From: a virus
Lineage: Duplodnaviria > Caudoviricetes
Direction: 5' to 3' (one strand)
DNA length: 24,136 bases
Virus record (IMG/VR): IMGVR_UViG_3300030372_003469
Location: 1-24,136 of that record
Part shown: positions 1,892-8,648 of the stretch, piece by piece
How positions within the stretch are numbered: the stretch's first letter is position 1
How the letters are laid out: each line of letters begins with the position of its first letter
The notes under the pieces: generated by a model
The model's database searches: none
What the model was told of the DNA's origin: nothing
Seen by the model: only the letters and a program-made list of their open reading frames with translations
Translations under genes and position numbers: made by a program

Positions 1892-2179
1892 ATGGCTACA
1901 AAAAACGCACCTTCAAGAAAAAAATCTCTTGGCTATTATGCTAAAGTAAAAAAAGGCAAAGGCAGAGGCGCTAAAGCTGGAGGTGGTATGACCGCTAAAG
2001 GCGTAGCTAAATATAGAAAAGATAATCCTGGTAGTAAGTTAAAAACTGCAGTAACCACGCCTCCTTCTAAATTAAAAAAAGGAAGCAAGGCATATAAGCG
2101 TAGAAAAGCGTTTTGTGCTAGATCTAAGAGCTGGACATCGGAAAGAGGTTTAGCTGCTAGAAGAAAATGGAATTGTTAA
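1892..2179 (+). CDS. Small, highly basic conserved phage protein (resembles DUF6321)
   Basis: 95 aa, K/R-rich, with motif GGMTAKGVAKYRKDNPGSKLKTAVT...RRKAFCARS...KWNC, recognised as a marine phage family. The DUF assignment is from memory. Confidence 0.7.
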   Translation: MATKNAPSRKKSLGYYAKVKKGKGRGAKAGGGMTAKGVAKYRKDNPGSKLKTAVTTPPSKLKKGSKAYKRRKAFCARSKSWTSERGLAARRKWNC

Positions 2180-2189
2180 ATTAAATCTT

Positions 2190-2657
2190 ATGTCTGAAAG
2201 AAAAAAAACTTATAAAGAAAAAAACGGTACAACTCGTGTTGGTGATTTCTTAAGAAGTATAGGTAAAGGTAAAGTATTAGATGTTGTTGGTAGTTTAGCT
2301 ACTGGTAATATTAAAGGCGCTATAGACGCTATATCTGCAAAAGATAATGGTATGAGCGATCAAGAAAAAGAGTATGCTTTAAAAGTAATGGAATTAGATG
2401 TTGAGGAAATGAAAAGTGTTTCCGCAAGATGGGATTCTGATATGAAATCTGATTCTTGGCTTTCAAAAAATGTACGTCCTTTAACTCTTATATTTTTAAC
2501 TGTAACTACCGTTGCTTTAATATATTTAGATTCTTTTGACAAAAGTGTTTCTGTTCCAAATGAATGGATTGAGTTATTAAAATCATTATTATTAGGTATT
2601 TATATAGCTTACTTTGGTTCAAGAGGATTAGAAAAGTATAAAACAATAAGCAAGTAA
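2190..2657 (+). CDS. Putative holin (GTA-type 3TM holin-like)
   Basis: SDSWLSKNVRP followed by two hydrophobic helices (LTLIFLTVTTVALIYL; LLKSLLLGIYIAYFG) and a YFGSRGLEK C-terminus, typical of this holin family. Confidence 0.75.
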   Translation: MSERKKTYKEKNGTTRVGDFLRSIGKGKVLDVVGSLATGNIKGAIDAISAKDNGMSDQEKEYALKVMELDVEEMKSVSARWDSDMKSDSWLSKNVRPLTLIFLTVTTVALIYLDSFDKSVSVPNEWIELLKSLLLGIYIAYFGSRGLEKYKTISK

Positions 2658-2962: not shown

Positions 2963-3173
2963 AAAAATAAGTATTGGCACTGATTATAAAAATGAAGCAA
3001 TGCACTACTCCGTAGGTCAACAGGTTTACGGAGGTCACTGCATATCAGATATACTATATGATCAAGAAGATTGTTCTTATAATATATACATAAGAAAAAA
3101 AGACGAAGTCATACCTTGGAAAAAGTTTAACTCCAATATGGCTATATCAATTGAATATAATTTAGAATACTAA
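2946..3173 (+). CDS. Hypothetical protein
   Basis: 75 aa. Overlaps the upstream gene by 17 nt, and its stop overlaps the next start (TAATG), implying translational coupling. Confidence 0.75.
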   Translation: MSKLIRKISIGTDYKNEAMHYSVGQQVYGGHCISDILYDQEDCSYNIYIRKKDEVIPWKKFNSNMAISIEYNLEY

Positions 3174-3796
3174 TGCAAAGCTTATATAGCTTCATAATAG
3201 AACCTAAAAACGGTAGGTATACTAATGAAGTAGATTTAAATGGTAAAAAATTAATAATTAATACTACCATGGACGACCATAAGTTTGTTAACAGAGTAGG
3301 GATTGTAAAATCAATACCTCTTATCGGTGAAACTGATATAAAAGTTAACGATGAAGTAATTGTACATCATAATGTATTTAGAAGATTCTATAATGTAAAA
3401 GGTATTGAAAAAAATAGCAGCTCTTATTTTAAAGAAGATAAATATTTTTGTTATTATGACCAAATATTTTTATATAAGCATAATAATAAATGGAAAGCTC
3501 CAGGTGATTTTTGTTTTGTAAAGCCAATAGTAAAAAAAGAAAAATCAATTATAAGCGATCAAAAAGAGCAAAAGCATATTGGTATATTAAAATACGGTAA
3601 TAGCTCCTTAAAAGCTTTTAAAATAAGCGAGGGAGACGTTGTAGGGTTTAGCCCTAGTAGCGAATACGAGTTTTTAATAGATAGCGATAGATTATATCGA
3701 ATGCGTACTAAAGACATTACAATTAAATATGAAAACAAAGGAGACGAAGTTGAATATAATCCAAGCTGGGCGGAAGGCTGTGGAAGAACTTATTAA
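3173..3796 (+). CDS. Co-chaperonin GroES-like protein, apparently two GroES-like domains
   Basis: C-half WKAPGDFCFVKP...GILKYG...ISEGDVVGF...EFLIDSDRLYRMRTKDI aligns by eye to the GroES pattern (KPLGDRVLVK...G.V..VG...VKVGD.V.F...EVK.DGEEYLI.RE.DI). N-half FIIEP...GIVKSIP...IKVNDEVIV shows the same pattern. Confidence 0.65.
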   Translation: MQSLYSFIIEPKNGRYTNEVDLNGKKLIINTTMDDHKFVNRVGIVKSIPLIGETDIKVNDEVIVHHNVFRRFYNVKGIEKNSSSYFKEDKYFCYYDQIFLYKHNNKWKAPGDFCFVKPIVKKEKSIISDQKEQKHIGILKYGNSSLKAFKISEGDVVGFSPSSEYEFLIDSDRLYRMRTKDITIKYENKGDEVEYNPSWAEGCGRTY

Positions 3797-4004
3797 AGTT
3801 GCTAAAGAACCAATAGTTGATTCAGATGATGATATATCTGCCGATAGATTAAAAAACGCAGCAGCTACAAAAAAGTTAGCAATATTCGATGCTTTTGAAA
3901 TACTTACTAGAATACAACAAGAAGAAGATATGTTAAATGATAGTAAGTCTAAAGATAATAAAGAAAAGTCTTTTAAAGGTTTTGCAGAAGGGAGGTCTAA
4001 ATGA
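3729..4004 (+). CDS. Putative terminase small subunit
   Basis: 91-aa helical protein directly upstream of terL and coupled to it by an ATGA overlap. Function inferred from synteny. Confidence 0.5.
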   Translation: MKTKETKLNIIQAGRKAVEELIKVAKEPIVDSDDDISADRLKNAAATKKLAIFDAFEILTRIQQEEDMLNDSKSKDNKEKSFKGFAEGRSK

Positions 4005-6223
4005 AATACGAGCAAAATTTAGTTAGGGTATTAAAAGATTATATAAAGCCTCATACTATAAATAAAAATAATAGATATAATAAATGGCAATATGGTTATA
4101 ATAAAGATCATGACATTGTAGTTATATCTAAGACTGGAAAAATCGGTGAAATATACGAAATACAAAATCTTAAAATAGCTTTACCGTTAATAGAAAAAAG
4201 TTATAAAAGATCTAAAAAAGAAACAGAACAATATTGGGAACCGTTAGAATACCCAAAAGAATTAAATAAAATAAAATCTGTTTTTGAATGGGAAGATTAT
4301 CCAAGTGAATTTAAAAACAAATGGTATGATTACATTGATGAAGAGTTTAAAAAAAGAGAAGAGGGTTTTGCATTTAATAACAAAGGCGTTCCTACTTATA
4401 TTACTGGCTCTCATTACATGTACTTGCAGTGGACCAAGATTGATGTTGGGCACCCAGATTTTAGGGAATCAAACAGATTATTCTTCATATTCTGGGAGGC
4501 TTGCAAGGCAGACAAACGTTGTTACGGAATGTGCTATCTTAAGAATAGAAGATCTGGATTTTCATTCATGTCATCGTCTGAGTTGGTGCATCAGGCAACA
4601 ACATCAAGGGATGCAAGGTTTGGTATATTATCCAAGACAGGATCTGATGCTAAGAAGATGTTTACAGATAAGGTCGTACCAATTTCCATTAACTACCCCT
4701 TCTTTTTTCGTCCCATACAGGACGGAATGGACAGGCCGAAGACAGAACTTGCGTACAGGGTCCCGGCGAGTAAATTCACAAGAAAGAAGCTCGACTCGAA
4801 GGAGAAGCTTAAGGAGATAGAAGGTCTAGATACAACTATTGATTGGAAAAACACAGGAGATAACTCTTATGATGGTGAAAAGCTAAAGTTATTAGCACAT
4901 GATGAATCAGGTAAATGGGAAAGACCTGACAATATATTAAATAACTGGAGAGTTACAAAAACAACATTAAGACTAGGTTCTAGAATTATAGGTAAATGTA
5001 TGATGGGTTCAACGTCAAACTCATTAGATAAAGGCGGCGATAATTTTAAAAAACTATACTATGACTCAGATGTCAAACGTAGAAACCGCAATGGACAAAC
5101 AAGCTCGGGATTATATTCTTTATTCATACCTATGGAATGGAACTACGAAGGATATATTGATATGTATGGAGCACCTGTCTTTGAAATTAGCAATGAAAAA
5201 GCATATGACCGCTATGGCGATGAAATAGATATAGGCGTAATAGAATATTGGCAAAATGAAGTAGACGGCCTTAAAGATGACCAAGACGGTTTGAATGAAT
5301 ATTATAGACAATTTCCAAGAACAGAAAGTCACGCATTTAGAGATGAGGCAAAATTATCTTTATTTAATCTAACTAAGATATACGAACAGATAGATTATAA
5401 CGACGAAATACAAAGACAAGGAGTTGTTACCGTTGGTAGTTTTCAATGGAAAAATGGTATAAAAGATACAACTGTAGAATTTATGCCAAATAAATCTGGA
5501 AGATTTAAAGTTAGTTGGGTTCCAAAATTAGAAATGCAAAATAGAATGCGTTTGCAAAATGGTATAAAATATCCAGCTAATGATCATATAGGCGCATTTG
5601 GATGCGATAGTTATGATATATCCGGCACAGTAGATGGTATAGGTTCAAATGGTGCTTTACACGGTCTTACAAAATATTCAATGGAAGAAGCTCCATCTAA
5701 TAGTTTTTTCTTAGAATATGTAGCAAGACCACAAACTGCTGAAATATTTTTTGAAGATGTACTTATGGCATGCGTTTTTTATGGTATGCCAATATTAGTT
5801 GAAAATAATAAACCTAGACTTTTATATCATTTTAAAAGAAGAGGCTATAGAGGTTACTCTATGAATAGACCGGATAAATCTTATAATAAATTATCCGCTA
5901 CAGAAAAAGAAATAGGTGGAATACCAAATTCATCAAATGATGTAAAGCAGGCTCATGCTGCAGCTATAGAATCCTATATTGAAAAACACGTAGGAATAAT
6001 AGAAGATGGATATGGTGATATGTATTTTACAAGAACATTAGAAGATTGGGCTAAGTTTGATATAAACAATAGAACAAAGTTTGATGCTTCGATAAGTTCA
6101 GGATTGGCAATAATGGCATGTAATAAAAACTTATATGCTCCAACTCAAGAAAGACAAGTCAGAACTATAAATCTTGGTATTAAAAGATATAACAACAAAG
6201 GTTCAAGATCAAAAATAATTTAA
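4001..6223 (+). CDS. terL: Terminase large subunit
   Basis: 740 aa. Walker A-like LKNRRSGFS, Walker B LLAHDESGKW, motif III GSTSN, nuclease motifs FGCDSYD, LVENN and FDASISSG. Lies upstream of the portal. Confidence 0.92.
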   Translation: MKYEQNLVRVLKDYIKPHTINKNNRYNKWQYGYNKDHDIVVISKTGKIGEIYEIQNLKIALPLIEKSYKRSKKETEQYWEPLEYPKELNKIKSVFEWEDYPSEFKNKWYDYIDEEFKKREEGFAFNNKGVPTYITGSHYMYLQWTKIDVGHPDFRESNRLFFIFWEACKADKRCYGMCYLKNRRSGFSFMSSSELVHQATTSRDARFGILSKTGSDAKKMFTDKVVPISINYPFFFRPIQDGMDRPKTELAYRVPASKFTRKKLDSKEKLKEIEGLDTTIDWKNTGDNSYDGEKLKLLAHDESGKWERPDNILNNWRVTKTTLRLGSRIIGKCMMGSTSNSLDKGGDNFKKLYYDSDVKRRNRNGQTSSGLYSLFIPMEWNYEGYIDMYGAPVFEISNEKAYDRYGDEIDIGVIEYWQNEVDGLKDDQDGLNEYYRQFPRTESHAFRDEAKLSLFNLTKIYEQIDYNDEIQRQGVVTVGSFQWKNGIKDTTVEFMPNKSGRFKVSWVPKLEMQNRMRLQNGIKYPANDHIGAFGCDSYDISGTVDGIGSNGALHGLTKYSMEEAPSNSFFLEYVARPQTAEIFFEDVLMACVFYGMPILVENNKPRLLYHFKRRGYRGYSMNRPDKSYNKLSATEKEIGGIPNSSNDVKQAHAAAIESYIEKHVGIIEDGYGDMYFTRTLEDWAKFDINNRTKFDASISSGLAIMACNKNLYAPTQERQVRTINLGIKRYNNKGSRSKII
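4326..4820 (+). CDS. Candidate overprinted lipoprotein in the +1 frame of terL
   Basis: Stop-free for 178 codons from 4284, with ATGs at 4326 and 4338. Basic N-region, hydrophobic AFLLILLALIT, then Cys (4419/4425). Coincides with a GC-rich island of terL. Confidence 0.6.
   Translation: MITLMKSLKKEKRVLHLITKAFLLILLALITCTCSGPRLMLGTQILGNQTDYSSYSGRLARQTNVVTECAILRIEDLDFHSCHRLSWCIRQQHQGMQGLVYYPRQDLMLRRCLQIRSYQFPLTTPSFFVPYRTEWTGRRQNLRTGSRRVNSQERSSTRRRSLRR
5061..5228 (+). CDS. Candidate overprinted 55-aa protein in the +1 frame of terL
   Basis: MTQMSNVETAMDKQARDYILYSYLWNGTTKDILICMEHLSLKLAMKKHMTAMAMK*. A-rich leader ttttaaaaaactatactATG. Atypical terL codons (GTC, CGT, CGC, TCG) in the overlap. Confidence 0.4.
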   Translation: MTQMSNVETAMDKQARDYILYSYLWNGTTKDILICMEHLSLKLAMKKHMTAMAMK

Positions 6224-6227
6224 ATAA

Positions 6228-8648
6228 ATGATTAATAAAGCTATAAAAAGTTCTTTTCCCAGCCAAGCGGTTAGTGATTTAGAAAAAATGAGTGCAGAAT
6301 ATGGTGCGCAGGTGGGTAGAGCTATAGAGCATGAATGGTTTAACTCTAAAGATGGGTATAGTGGTAAAAATGGGTCGGGAAGATATATGACATCAAGACA
6401 ATCTTTTCATTCATTAAGATTATACGCAAGAGGAGAACAATCTGTTAGAAAATATAAAGATGAATTATCTATAAATGGTGATTTATCTTACATGAATCTT
6501 GATTGGAAACCCGTTCCAATTATACCAAAGTTTGTTGATATAGTTGTAAATGGTATGGCAGATAGATCTTATGACATAAAAGCATATTCCCAAGATCCTG
6601 CATCGATAAAAGAAAGAACAGACTATGTAACAAAAATAGCGGAAGATATGGCGGCCCAGCCATTTAACGACGCTGTTGCAGTTCAACTTGGTATTGATAT
6701 ATATCAAACAGATCAAGACAAATTACCTGAAACTTCAGAAGAGTTAGAATTACATATGCAGCTTGAATATAAGCAGTCTATTGAAATAGCTGAAGAAGAG
6801 GCTATTAATAGTGTATTTGATAAAAATAAATATGAATTAATATCTAGGCGTATTAATAATGATTTAACAGTTATAGGTATTGGTGCTGCAAAAAGCACTT
6901 TTAATAAAGCAGAAGGTATTAAAGTTGAGTATGTAGATCCTGCTGATCTTATATATTCAAATACTGATTCCCCTTATTTTGATGATATATACTATGTGGG
7001 TGAAGTAAAAGAAATATATTTAAATGAATTAAAAAAAGAATTTCCTGAATTAACAGATGAACAATTAGAATCTTATAAAGGCTATAGTACATCTTATACG
7101 TACACAGGATATAATTCTAAATCAAATGAAAATAACAGCGTAGCTGTATTATATTTTGAATATAAAACTTATGCTAATCAAGTTTATAAGGTAAAGAAAA
7201 CAGCAACCGGAGGTGATAAAGCTATTGAAAAAAATGACACTTTTAATCCACCAAATTCAGATGATTTCAGTAAAGTCGATAGAGCCATTGAGGTTATATA
7301 TGAAGGTGTTAAAGTTATAGGTAGCAATGAAGTTCTTAAATGGGAACTTAAGAAAAATATGATGCGACCAAAAGCAGATACTACAAAAGCTCAAATGAGT
7401 TATGCTATCTGCGCACCTAGAATGTATGAAGGAAGAATAGAATCGCTTGTTAGTCGTATGACTAATTTTGCAGATATGATTCAGTTAACGCATTTAAAGC
7501 TACAACAGGTATTATCAAGAGTTGTACCAGACGGTGTTTATTTAGATGCTGATGCTTTAGCTGAAATTGATTTAGGCAACGGAACAAATTATAATCCTCA
7601 AGAAGCATTAAATATGTATTTTCAAACCGGTAGTGTTATTGGTAGATCAATGACTCAGGACGGTGATATGAATAGAGGAAGATTACCAATTACAGAACTT
7701 AACTCTAGTGGTGGTAATAATAAAATAAGCGCATTAATAAGTACGTATAATTACTATTTACAGATGATGCGTGATGTAACTGGTTTAAATGAAGCCAGAG
7801 ATGGAAGTATCCCAGATAAAAACGCTTTAGTTGGATTACAAAAATTAGCAGCCGCTAATTCTAATACAGCAACAAGGCACTTATTGCAATCAAGCTTGTT
7901 TATAACCCTATCAATGGCAGAGTGTATTGCAATGCGAGTGTCGGATGTTATAGAATATTCTCCTACTAAAGAATCTTTTATAAAAACTTTAGGTAAGTTT
8001 AATGTTTCTACTTTAGAAGAAATGGCAAACTTGCATTTACATGACTTTGGTATATTCTTAGAGCTAGCTCCAGATGAAGAAGAAAAGCAAAAATTAGAAA
8101 ATAATATTCAAGTTGCTTTGCAGTCTGGGCAAATATATTTAGAAGATGCTATAGAAGTTAGAGAAGTGCGTAATATAAAATTAGCGAACCAGCTTCTTAA
8201 AATACGTAGAAGAAAGAAACAACAATTAGATCAAGAGCAACAACAAAGAAATATACAAGCTCAAACGCAATCTAACTCACAATCTGCTCAGGCTGCGGCT
8301 CAAGCTGATATGCAAAAACAACAAGCATTAACAGAATCTAAAGCTCAGTTAGAACAAATTAAAAGCCAATTAGAAATAGCAAAACTTGAAAGAGAAGCTG
8401 CTATAAAGAAAGAGTTAATGGAAGCGGAGTTTAATTTTAACATGCGCCTAAGTGAAATGCGCATTAAAGAAGTTAATCAAAAAGATAAATTTAAAGAAGA
8501 TCGTAAAGACGAAAGAACAAAAATACAAGCATCACAGCAAAGTGAGCTTATAGATCAAAGAAAAAATAACGCACCGCCTAAAAACTTTGAATCCGCAGGA
8601 ATGGATAACTTAGGTGGATTTGGGTTAGAACAATTCGAGCCTAGATAA
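6228..8648 (+). CDS. Portal protein
   Basis: 806 aa, between terL and scaffold/MCP. Contains PIIPKFVDIVVNGM and MMRDVTGLNEARDG motifs and a long Q/A-rich C-terminal coiled coil like podoviral portal barrels. Confidence 0.88.
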   Translation: MINKAIKSSFPSQAVSDLEKMSAEYGAQVGRAIEHEWFNSKDGYSGKNGSGRYMTSRQSFHSLRLYARGEQSVRKYKDELSINGDLSYMNLDWKPVPIIPKFVDIVVNGMADRSYDIKAYSQDPASIKERTDYVTKIAEDMAAQPFNDAVAVQLGIDIYQTDQDKLPETSEELELHMQLEYKQSIEIAEEEAINSVFDKNKYELISRRINNDLTVIGIGAAKSTFNKAEGIKVEYVDPADLIYSNTDSPYFDDIYYVGEVKEIYLNELKKEFPELTDEQLESYKGYSTSYTYTGYNSKSNENNSVAVLYFEYKTYANQVYKVKKTATGGDKAIEKNDTFNPPNSDDFSKVDRAIEVIYEGVKVIGSNEVLKWELKKNMMRPKADTTKAQMSYAICAPRMYEGRIESLVSRMTNFADMIQLTHLKLQQVLSRVVPDGVYLDADALAEIDLGNGTNYNPQEALNMYFQTGSVIGRSMTQDGDMNRGRLPITELNSSGGNNKISALISTYNYYLQMMRDVTGLNEARDGSIPDKNALVGLQKLAAANSNTATRHLLQSSLFITLSMAECIAMRVSDVIEYSPTKESFIKTLGKFNVSTLEEMANLHLHDFGIFLELAPDEEEKQKLENNIQVALQSGQIYLEDAIEVREVRNIKLANQLLKIRRRKKQQLDQEQQQRNIQAQTQSNSQSAQAAAQADMQKQQALTESKAQLEQIKSQLEIAKLEREAAIKKELMEAEFNFNMRLSEMRIKEVNQKDKFKEDRKDERTKIQASQQSELIDQRKNNAPPKNFESAGMDNLGGFGLEQFEPR

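Follow-up and report, generated by a model that had tools for sequence, protein, structure and literature searches.

The terL locus and its second reading frame

The window analyzed here, i.e., the whole stretch of 24,136 nucleotides from the Caudoviricetes record IMGVR_UViG_3300030372_003469, contains a gene for the terminase large subunit (terL, 4001..6223; 740 amino acids (aa); phrog_6681, E 2e-162) whose +1 frame harbors a second gene for a putative lipoprotein. All features described below lie on the + strand. The +1 frame is free of stops from 4275 to a TAG at 4818-4820 (181 codons from stop to stop), corresponding to an open reading frame (ORF) of 178 aa counted from a TTG at 4284, in agreement with the original prediction made from the sequence of this stretch. 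With ATGs at 4326 and 4338, the overprinted gene (4326..4820) would encode 164 aa or 160 aa, respectively; the sequence of the product is MKSLKKEKRVLHLITKAFLLILLALITCTCSGPR, with four further Cys residues. The longest other off-frame run among the 13 long ORFs of the window is 73 codons. Synonymous recoding of the window terL with its own codon usage outside the overlap left the frame stop-free in 0/1000 cases, and recoding with GC-rich or shuffled codons in approximately 2%.

The nested gene overlaps the TerL motif KNRRSGFS (4541..4564), which we take to be a deviant Walker A; among the 81 TerL sequences described below, K181, R183-G186, and S188 were conserved in 81/81, F187 in 81, and N182 in 75. 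The motif LLAHDE (4889..4906), presumably Walker B-like, lies outside the nested ORF in the window and falls inside it in relatives whose +1 ORF extends to codons 313-325. The predicted GC contrast was also reproduced (0.50 at 4700-4799 vs 0.25 at 4200-4299) and is confined to third codon positions of terL: GC content at these positions (GC3) is 0.50 in codons 145-272 vs 0.16 in codons 273-330, with first and second positions unchanged across the +1 stop. A promoter scan returned fewer sites than in shuffled sequence, and the matching metatranscriptome contigs came from relatives sharing at most 5% of words, which makes them uninformative on frame, strand, and level.

Selection on the open frame in TerL homologues

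A first set, comprising the window and the best 80 of 634 TerL homologues (68-83% identity), was codon-aligned, and openness was scored as the number of +1 stops between TerL codons 115 and 249. Of these 81 viral loci, 56 had no +1 stop (one of them spans only codon 140 onward), 25 had 2-9 stops, and none had a single one, while three synonymous-recoding nulls predicted only 0.05, 1.4, and 0.6 stop-free sequences in 81. A similar division was found in a second set of 73 loci from contigs of metagenome-assembled genomes (MAGs), 62 of which could be scored: 32 had zero stops, 2 had one, and 28 had at least three. Openness in close homologues, on which the original prediction had made its case depend, thus extends to most of them (56/81; 32/62).

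Three closed homologues (L228, L238, and L245) have a GC3 of 0.57-0.67 and yet retain 4-5 stops, implying that GC by itself does not open the frame, and one open homologue (L178) has a GC3 of only 0.27. In open sequences, the stretch of raised GC3 ends where the genome's own +1 stop falls: among the 21 open sequences that read past codon 313, GC3 at codons 299-312 is 0.66, compared with 0.29-0.31 in the 33 with an earlier stop (p 1e-8). Because T-to-C/G changes convert +1 Leu/Ile/Val/Phe to Ser/Thr/Pro/Arg, the GC island, which the original prediction had feared to be a recombinant patch, is best read as a by-product of the second gene. Judging from these alignments, the +1 frame is almost certainly a real gene kept open by selection.

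Two further patterns were observed. In L191, L206, L385, L388, and L481, the signal described below is wholly or largely intact and is followed by 1-3 downstream stops, apparently reflecting recent losses or truncations. At TerL N288-S289 (window 4862-4869), open sequences use AAC in 55/56 cases and TCN/GCN at codon 289, even beyond their own stop, vs mostly AGT at S289 in closed sequences (17/25); this may reflect a common origin of the segment or avoidance of AATT.

A lipoprotein-type signal at two positions on one frame

The N-terminus of the nested product consists of a basic n-region (4326..4385), seen in the sequence and accompanied by K/R-bearing n-regions in homologues, a hydrophobic h-region AFLLILLALIT (4386..4418), which arises from the choice of NCT and ATT codons in TerL G-V-P-T-Y-I-T-G-S-H-Y, and C-T-C-S-G (4419..4433), whose second Cys (4425-4427), with Thr at -1, is chosen and is the likely lipidation site. 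In the h-region (codons 129-139), mean Kyte-Doolittle hydropathy (KD) is 2.64 in open vs 1.22 in closed homologues and synonymous divergence is 0.26 vs 0.48; the third base of TerL T135 is T in 55/55 open vs 8/25 closed sequences. The first Cys of C-T-C is forced by TerL Met-Tyr, whereas the second depends on an NTG Leu codon and occurs in 54/56 open vs 8/25 closed sequences (the preceding Thr in 54/56 vs 7/25). The h-region and Cys of the lipoprotein-like signal originally proposed are thus conserved and under selection, whereas the frame itself accounts for most of its basic character (net charge over the same codons, +7.4 in open vs +6.1 in closed); likewise, the suggested suppression of synonymous sites holds in the signal and not in the mature part.

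A start codon (ATG, TTG, or GTG) occurs at TerL codons 109-116 in 55/55 open homologues at no single fixed position, and 7/55 have TTG or GTG starts only. Among sequences with a TAG at codon 112, the next codon is ATG in 11/14 open vs 2/12 closed ones, which supports the idea that the nested gene has its own start.

Additional evidence comes from a second lineage (TerL 63-71% identical), which was found with patterns of the +1 protein, four more members being found without that bias. This lineage uses the same frame, in which C-T-C-S-G has been lost, the start and the h-region lie earlier, and an uncharged stretch occupies the place where the main lineage is charged. The stretch ends in a lipobox, [IT]-G-S-C, approximately 16 codons upstream of the main-lineage site. 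TerL F125 is read from TTC, which gives Ser at -1, in 27/28 of these sequences vs 8/76 closed ones, and an ATG follows within a few codons of the last upstream stops in 21/21 full-length rows. Against the consensus lipobox [LVI][ASTVI][GAS]C, the second lineage thus shows G-S-C (27/28) and the window lineage Thr at -1. Overall, a basic n-region and an uncharged h-region ending in Cys were recognized by rule in 141/152 distinct open sequences and by eye in the other 11. The occurrence of one kind of signal at two positions on one frame is the best argument for lipidation, and the nested product is probably a lipoprotein.

A variable hydrophilic mature part

The mature part (4428..4817) is hydrophilic and rich in S/T/P/Q/R, with four Cys and no transmembrane (TM) segment, as indicated by KD. 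Its mean KD is -0.47 in open vs +0.41 in closed homologues, and its maximum 19-residue KD is 0.43 in the window and below 1.2 in 53/55 sequences (those with the mature part cut correctly). Its length varies from 108 to 190 aa, as +1 stops in the first set fall at codons 250 to 325. AlphaFold2 gave no confident fold (predicted local distance difference test score (pLDDT) 44.7, and below 50 for residues 37-164). At least two putatively periplasmic Cys are present in all open sequences (four in the window), but two of them are forced by TerL. Synonymous divergence at codons 181-290 is 0.53-0.55 vs a background of approximately 0.40, implying that composition counts more than exact sequence. Searches of the product against Pfam, PHROGs, and NCBIfam gave no match, and the best ESM Atlas hit scored 0.79, with a Bor/Iss cluster at 0.78, below the lead threshold. 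The mature part showed no amphipathic helix under selection, which weakens a reading of the phiKT gp28 type, as far as that type is described in the available text of its source.

Trade-off with lysis-module lipoproteins of relatives

Stand-alone lipoproteins turned up in some closed members of a first scan covering 31 whole long contigs (17 open and 14 closed); the trade-off was apparent only in whole contigs, none being seen among genes up to 5 kb upstream of terL. One of the lipoproteins, lipoB (approximately 145 aa, A-S-C box, rich in Y/P/S/T/N), either overlaps the start of fam53 by approximately 32 bases or comes after the endolysin. fam53 is a small protein encoded beside an M15 endolysin, with a predicted TM helix, Pro linker, and helix (pLDDT 66), a layout similar to the i-spanin plan in the available text of the spanin survey (PMC6139136). 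Together, lipoB and fam53 form a candidate o-spanin/i-spanin pair of Bacteroidota-type phages. lipoB was found in 23 records, 19 of which contain terL, and 18 of these are closed; the only open carrier has a distant lipoB. Among the carriers, L385, with an intact signal followed by two stops, and L388, with one stop, look as recent decay would lead one to expect. The other lipoprotein is u-spanin-like, with an S-S-C lipobox, a C-terminal TM segment, and a gene overlapping that of the M15 endolysin, which is the u-spanin layout. It occurs in 19 records, 10 of them with terL: nine in-family terL, all closed (5 distinct sequences), and one distant terL. Neither fam53 nor lipoB was present in any of the 19 u-spanin-like loci.

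An unbiased test set picked by fam53 (the best 80 of 300 loci; 69 records matched TerL, 68 were used after a 39-residue fragment was omitted, and 44 were scorable) contained lipoB in 0/24 open vs 15/20 closed records (p 7e-8), 12 of the 15 lipoB-positive closed records being also in the 23-record lipoB set. One open record carries a different 118-aa lipoprotein. As kin share traits, independent pairs were counted on four gene trees: frame state and lipoB moved together in 4.4-5.7 of 6-7 pairs, and in no pair did they go opposite ways. The nested product and lipoB also have a similar S/T/P-rich hydrophilic make-up, and fam53-like genes were found in 4/5 near-complete open genomes. On this comparative basis, the nested product is quite likely to be interchangeable with lipoB.

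Several details of these modules are worth recording. lipoB (L349:10001-10444; L348-L370) includes low-complexity Y/W/P/N-rich sequence, and the first of its ESM Atlas clusters comprises 1017 members, with no Pfam assignment; the u-spanin-like family (L273:4807-5316 in G027, and L329-L347) has no notable match in Pfam, PHROG, or NCBIfam. Compared with known spanins, the stand-alone candidates showed no family match. In the open record L469, an apparent lipoB match was dropped because it came from the signal peptide of a neighboring gene; in this record, which has no lipoB, a 390-aa secreted protein (L469:3405) starts with a lipoB-like signal, as if recombination between signals had deleted lipoB. 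The lysis module at L087:8340-10220 also contains genes for two secreted proteins, one of 390 aa that belongs to no known family and one resembling thioredoxin, which would be a periplasmic redox protein encoded by a phage beside its lysis genes. G001 (L084 and L087) is a 77-kb contig with two diverged copies of one gene block and is likely an over-length or chimeric assembly.

Origin and distribution

A search of 1.84 billion proteins with a profile yielded 153 matches, and all of the new ones listed (123/123) map to the +1 frame of terL, 44 of them as chimeras with TerL. The 137 called database proteins do not count as independent support, as many of them are such indel chimeras. Because all new matches lie in the terL +1 frame and none is stand-alone, the nested gene most likely arose de novo on terL by overprinting. 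The frame is closed in five cultured relatives and in MW202828. On a quick tree built from the TerL C-terminus, the frame switches between open and closed 11 times, with well-supported branches forcing no fewer than 8 of these changes, and close open/closed pairs diverge most within the overlap, which fits repeated loss and recombination. The gene has thus most likely been lost and swapped many times.

Functional interpretation

The nested gene is, in our view, somewhat more probably than not a de novo o-spanin-like lysis lipoprotein. It would be translated from its own start (ATG 4326 or 4338) on late mRNA, and the product would be exported via Sec, cut by signal peptidase II, and lipidated at the Cys at 4425, so that it could be anchored in the outer membrane with its flexible tail reaching into the periplasm. 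There it may meet the i-spanin-like fam53 protein, encoded next to the M15 endolysin in relatives, and the two could join both membranes once holin and endolysin have acted. The original prediction had offered a spanin-like or a superinfection-exclusion role; the mutual exclusion with lysis-module lipoproteins lends comparative support to the former, and the latter gained none. A broader scenario is more tentative, falling a little short of an even chance: a lysis protein may have originated de novo on the catalytic core of the packaging motor, its signal set at different positions in two lineages, and may have taken over from ordinary spanins. These abundant marine phages would then toggle among three unrelated outer-membrane solutions, namely an o-spanin concealed in terL, a stand-alone lipoprotein that shares its inner-membrane partner, and a u-spanin.

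Lambda Rz1 within Rz and T7 18.7 within 18.5 are likewise lipoprotein-type genes embedded in another frame of a late gene and overlooked by gene callers (available text of PMC6139136; T7 record). These embedded o-spanins have a flexible periplasmic part with periplasmic Cys, as is predicted for the nested product; however, they sit in the gene of their i-spanin, whereas the nested gene sits in that of the packaging ATPase, its putative partner fam53 lies approximately 25 kb away in G001, its mature part is 108-190 aa, its presence is patchy, and there is no sequence similarity. In the available text of the survey, o-spanin genes are placed in only three ways relative to their i-spanin (embedded, overlapping, or separate), and the word "terminase" is absent from its main text (PMC6139136). 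With terL as the host gene and fam53 in a distant lysis module, the nested gene departs from the architecture of o-spanin genes, which lie in, over, or beside that of the i-spanin, although the product may work like an embedded one. Nesting in terL has a precedent in T7 genes 19.2 and 19.3 (NC_001604), which are annotated ORFs in the +1 frame of terminase gene 19; unlike the present gene, they encode hypothetical proteins of 85 and 57 aa with no N-terminal h-region and lipobox by eye, in an unrelated phage with no evidence of a trade-off. A literature search found nothing on 19.2/19.3 and, with subscription papers outside its scope, no published lipoprotein nested in terL. The replacement of the nested gene in relatives by a lipoB-fam53 pair or a u-spanin-like gene beside the endolysin resembles T4 PseT.3/PseT.2 and T1 gp11 as given in the available text of PMC6139136. 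The nested product, lacking a C-terminal TM segment, is unlike T1 gp11 and is therefore not a u-spanin. u-spanins have been annotated in phages Ingeline and Nekkels (PMC8776804, available text).

The origin of the gene also has a parallel. The phiX174 gene E, in D, is a de novo +1-frame lysis gene with a Leu-rich anchor from T-ending codons of the host frame and a variable basic tail; it is a single-gene MraY inhibitor without a lipobox. The nested gene is likewise a +1 overprint with an anchor, but here separate holin and endolysin exist.

A number of observations weigh against lipidation or an o-spanin-like role. The lipobox of the window (L-I-T-C or T-C-T-C) has no G/A/S at -1, and its signal of 29-33 residues exceeds the usual 10-25 (PMC13721041, available text), although a deviant lipobox, AWAC, can function according to the accessible part of PMC6139136. 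Among 125 distinct motifs of the main lineage, the second Cys is missing in 3 and the first in 1. The database proteins P0199 and P0204 show a long +1 frame of a distant terL with no h-region and G-S-C after a charged stretch, possibly a proto-gene or a chance state in GC-richer genomes. The poor conservation of the mature part is odd for a partner-binding surface, and comparison with lipoB found no sequence similarity (hhalign probability 0.3%). Tree-corrected sign tests are consistent but borderline (median p 0.03-0.125), and 5/20 closed fam53 records have no lipoB in the stretch seen. fam53 had no match in the near-complete open genome G034. Of ten near-complete closed contigs, two carry fam53 without a lysis-module lipoprotein, four lack both fam53 and a lipoprotein, and in one a small TM protein is all that was found; with 7/10 thus lacking such a lipoprotein (5 also lacking fam53), a spanin is not evidently required in the group. 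Finally, lipoB and fam53 have no periplasmic Cys, unlike most two-component spanins (507/528 in the available text of PMC6139136).

Among other explanations, the most serious, albeit an unlikely one, is that the product is a lipoprotein interchangeable with lipoB that is no fusogen and instead blocks a host outer-membrane receptor from the periplasmic side (superinfection exclusion, as with T5 Llp and Cor) or remodels the envelope. The patchy presence and fast-changing mature sequence, the selection on the lipoprotein signal, and the many closed genomes that manage without any spanin candidate are compatible with such a role, and the clustering of lipoB with the 390-aa and thioredoxin-like secreted proteins means that the module may have non-lytic functions. 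Llp and Cor are also phage lipoproteins facing the periplasm, as is proposed here; but exclusion proteins are described as early proteins, and Llp and Cor are small, folded, not overprinted, and without a link to lysis genes, Llp lying beside a receptor-binding gene (PMC9586334, available text), whereas the present gene has no confident fold and sits in terL, with no family match to Llp/Cor in Pfam, PHROG, or NCBIfam. Superinfection exclusion would also leave the mutual exclusion with the endolysin-overlapping u-spanin-like gene unexplained. Rather less probable is a membrane-targeted but non-lipidated product, which would either stay in the inner membrane as an uncleaved anchor or be cut by signal peptidase I, and might act, for instance, as a lysis timer or antiholin. 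It would accommodate the Thr at -1, the long signal, the TerL-forced first Cys, the G-L-C in 1/28 second-lineage sequences and two database proteins, and T-C-S and C-S-G could act as small-residue cleavage sites. On the other hand, the second Cys was chosen against AT bias in 54/56, the second lineage arrived independently at G-S-C by synonymous choice in 27/28, and the genes with which the nested gene trades off encode clear lipoproteins (A-S-C and S-S-C).

The two remaining alternatives deny an independent gene. A ribosomal frameshift from TerL into the +1 frame, which would fuse the TerL N-terminus to a membrane anchor, might be suggested by the lack of a single invariant ATG, the TTG-only or GTG-only starts in 7/55, and the chimeras (44/123). 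It is very improbable given the coupling of a stop at codon 112 to ATG at 113 and the ATG soon after the last upstream stops in all 21 full-length second-lineage rows; the frame switches of the chimeras are scattered and go either way, a pattern expected of assembly indels, and a signal peptide requires an N-terminal position. Least credible of all, with hardly any probability left to it, is that there is no second gene and that a GC-rich recombinant patch or codon bias left the frame open by chance. GC3 is indeed raised over the region, and the divergence of close open/closed sister pairs, greatest in the overlap, suggests recombination; nevertheless, GC-matched and shuffled nulls expect only 0.6-1.4 open frames in 81, the closed high-GC3 and open low-GC3 homologues do not follow composition, raised GC3 ends at each genome's own stop, and the hydropathy of open sequences is raised in the signal but lowered in the mature part.

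Genomic context and host range

The window record is 40% complete and lacks the endolysin region, where fam53 would sit; it contains tail-spike-like, holin-like, GroES-like, terL, portal, and virion genes. The holin-like gene (2190..2657; phrog_3427, E 1e-18) ends approximately 1.7 kb upstream of the nested ORF, as had been noted. It is followed by a GroES-like co-chaperonin gene (3173..3796; phrog_13932), which is also found in Pervagoviridae and Pachyviridae relatives, and the portal gene (6228..8648; phrog_6547) lies downstream of terL. Directly upstream of terL, a 91-aa gene (3729-4004) is kept in relatives and has no family match; it is probably the small terminase subunit, because elemoA and phi38:1 instead have a longer TerL N-terminus. 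Groups of small, strongly basic ORFs, one of them DUF6321, are located upstream of the packaging genes (window 1892-2179 and L085:4321-6773).

The window TerL is 36-45% identical to the annotated TerL of phi38:1, phi19:3, Panino, and elemo phages and 31% identical to that of Gundel. Cultured phages with TerL in this range (31-45%) grow on Flavobacterium, Cellulophaga, Maribacter, and Tenacibaculum, and we therefore infer a Bacteroidota host. Host labels of the MAG contigs were mixed, apparently because of misbinning. An estimated 16,000 or so stored viral stretches match the TerL patterns, and the phage group carrying the nested gene is widespread and marine.

Implications

As a natural example of gene birth on a near-invariant enzyme core, this locus is unusually clear-cut: many open and closed alleles serve as built-in controls, and the recoding of the host gene is visible. 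The trade-off with lysis-module lipoproteins supplies a testable function. Two new stand-alone candidates for Bacteroidota-type phages have also emerged, lipoB with fam53 and the u-spanin-like gene. The findings bear on how phages without a visible spanin (91/677 in the available text of PMC6139136) break the outer membrane. If the broader scenario of phages toggling among three outer-membrane solutions is true, an o-spanin would need little beyond a lipid anchor and a hydrophilic tether, and some "spanin-less" phages would conceal their spanins within unrelated essential genes.

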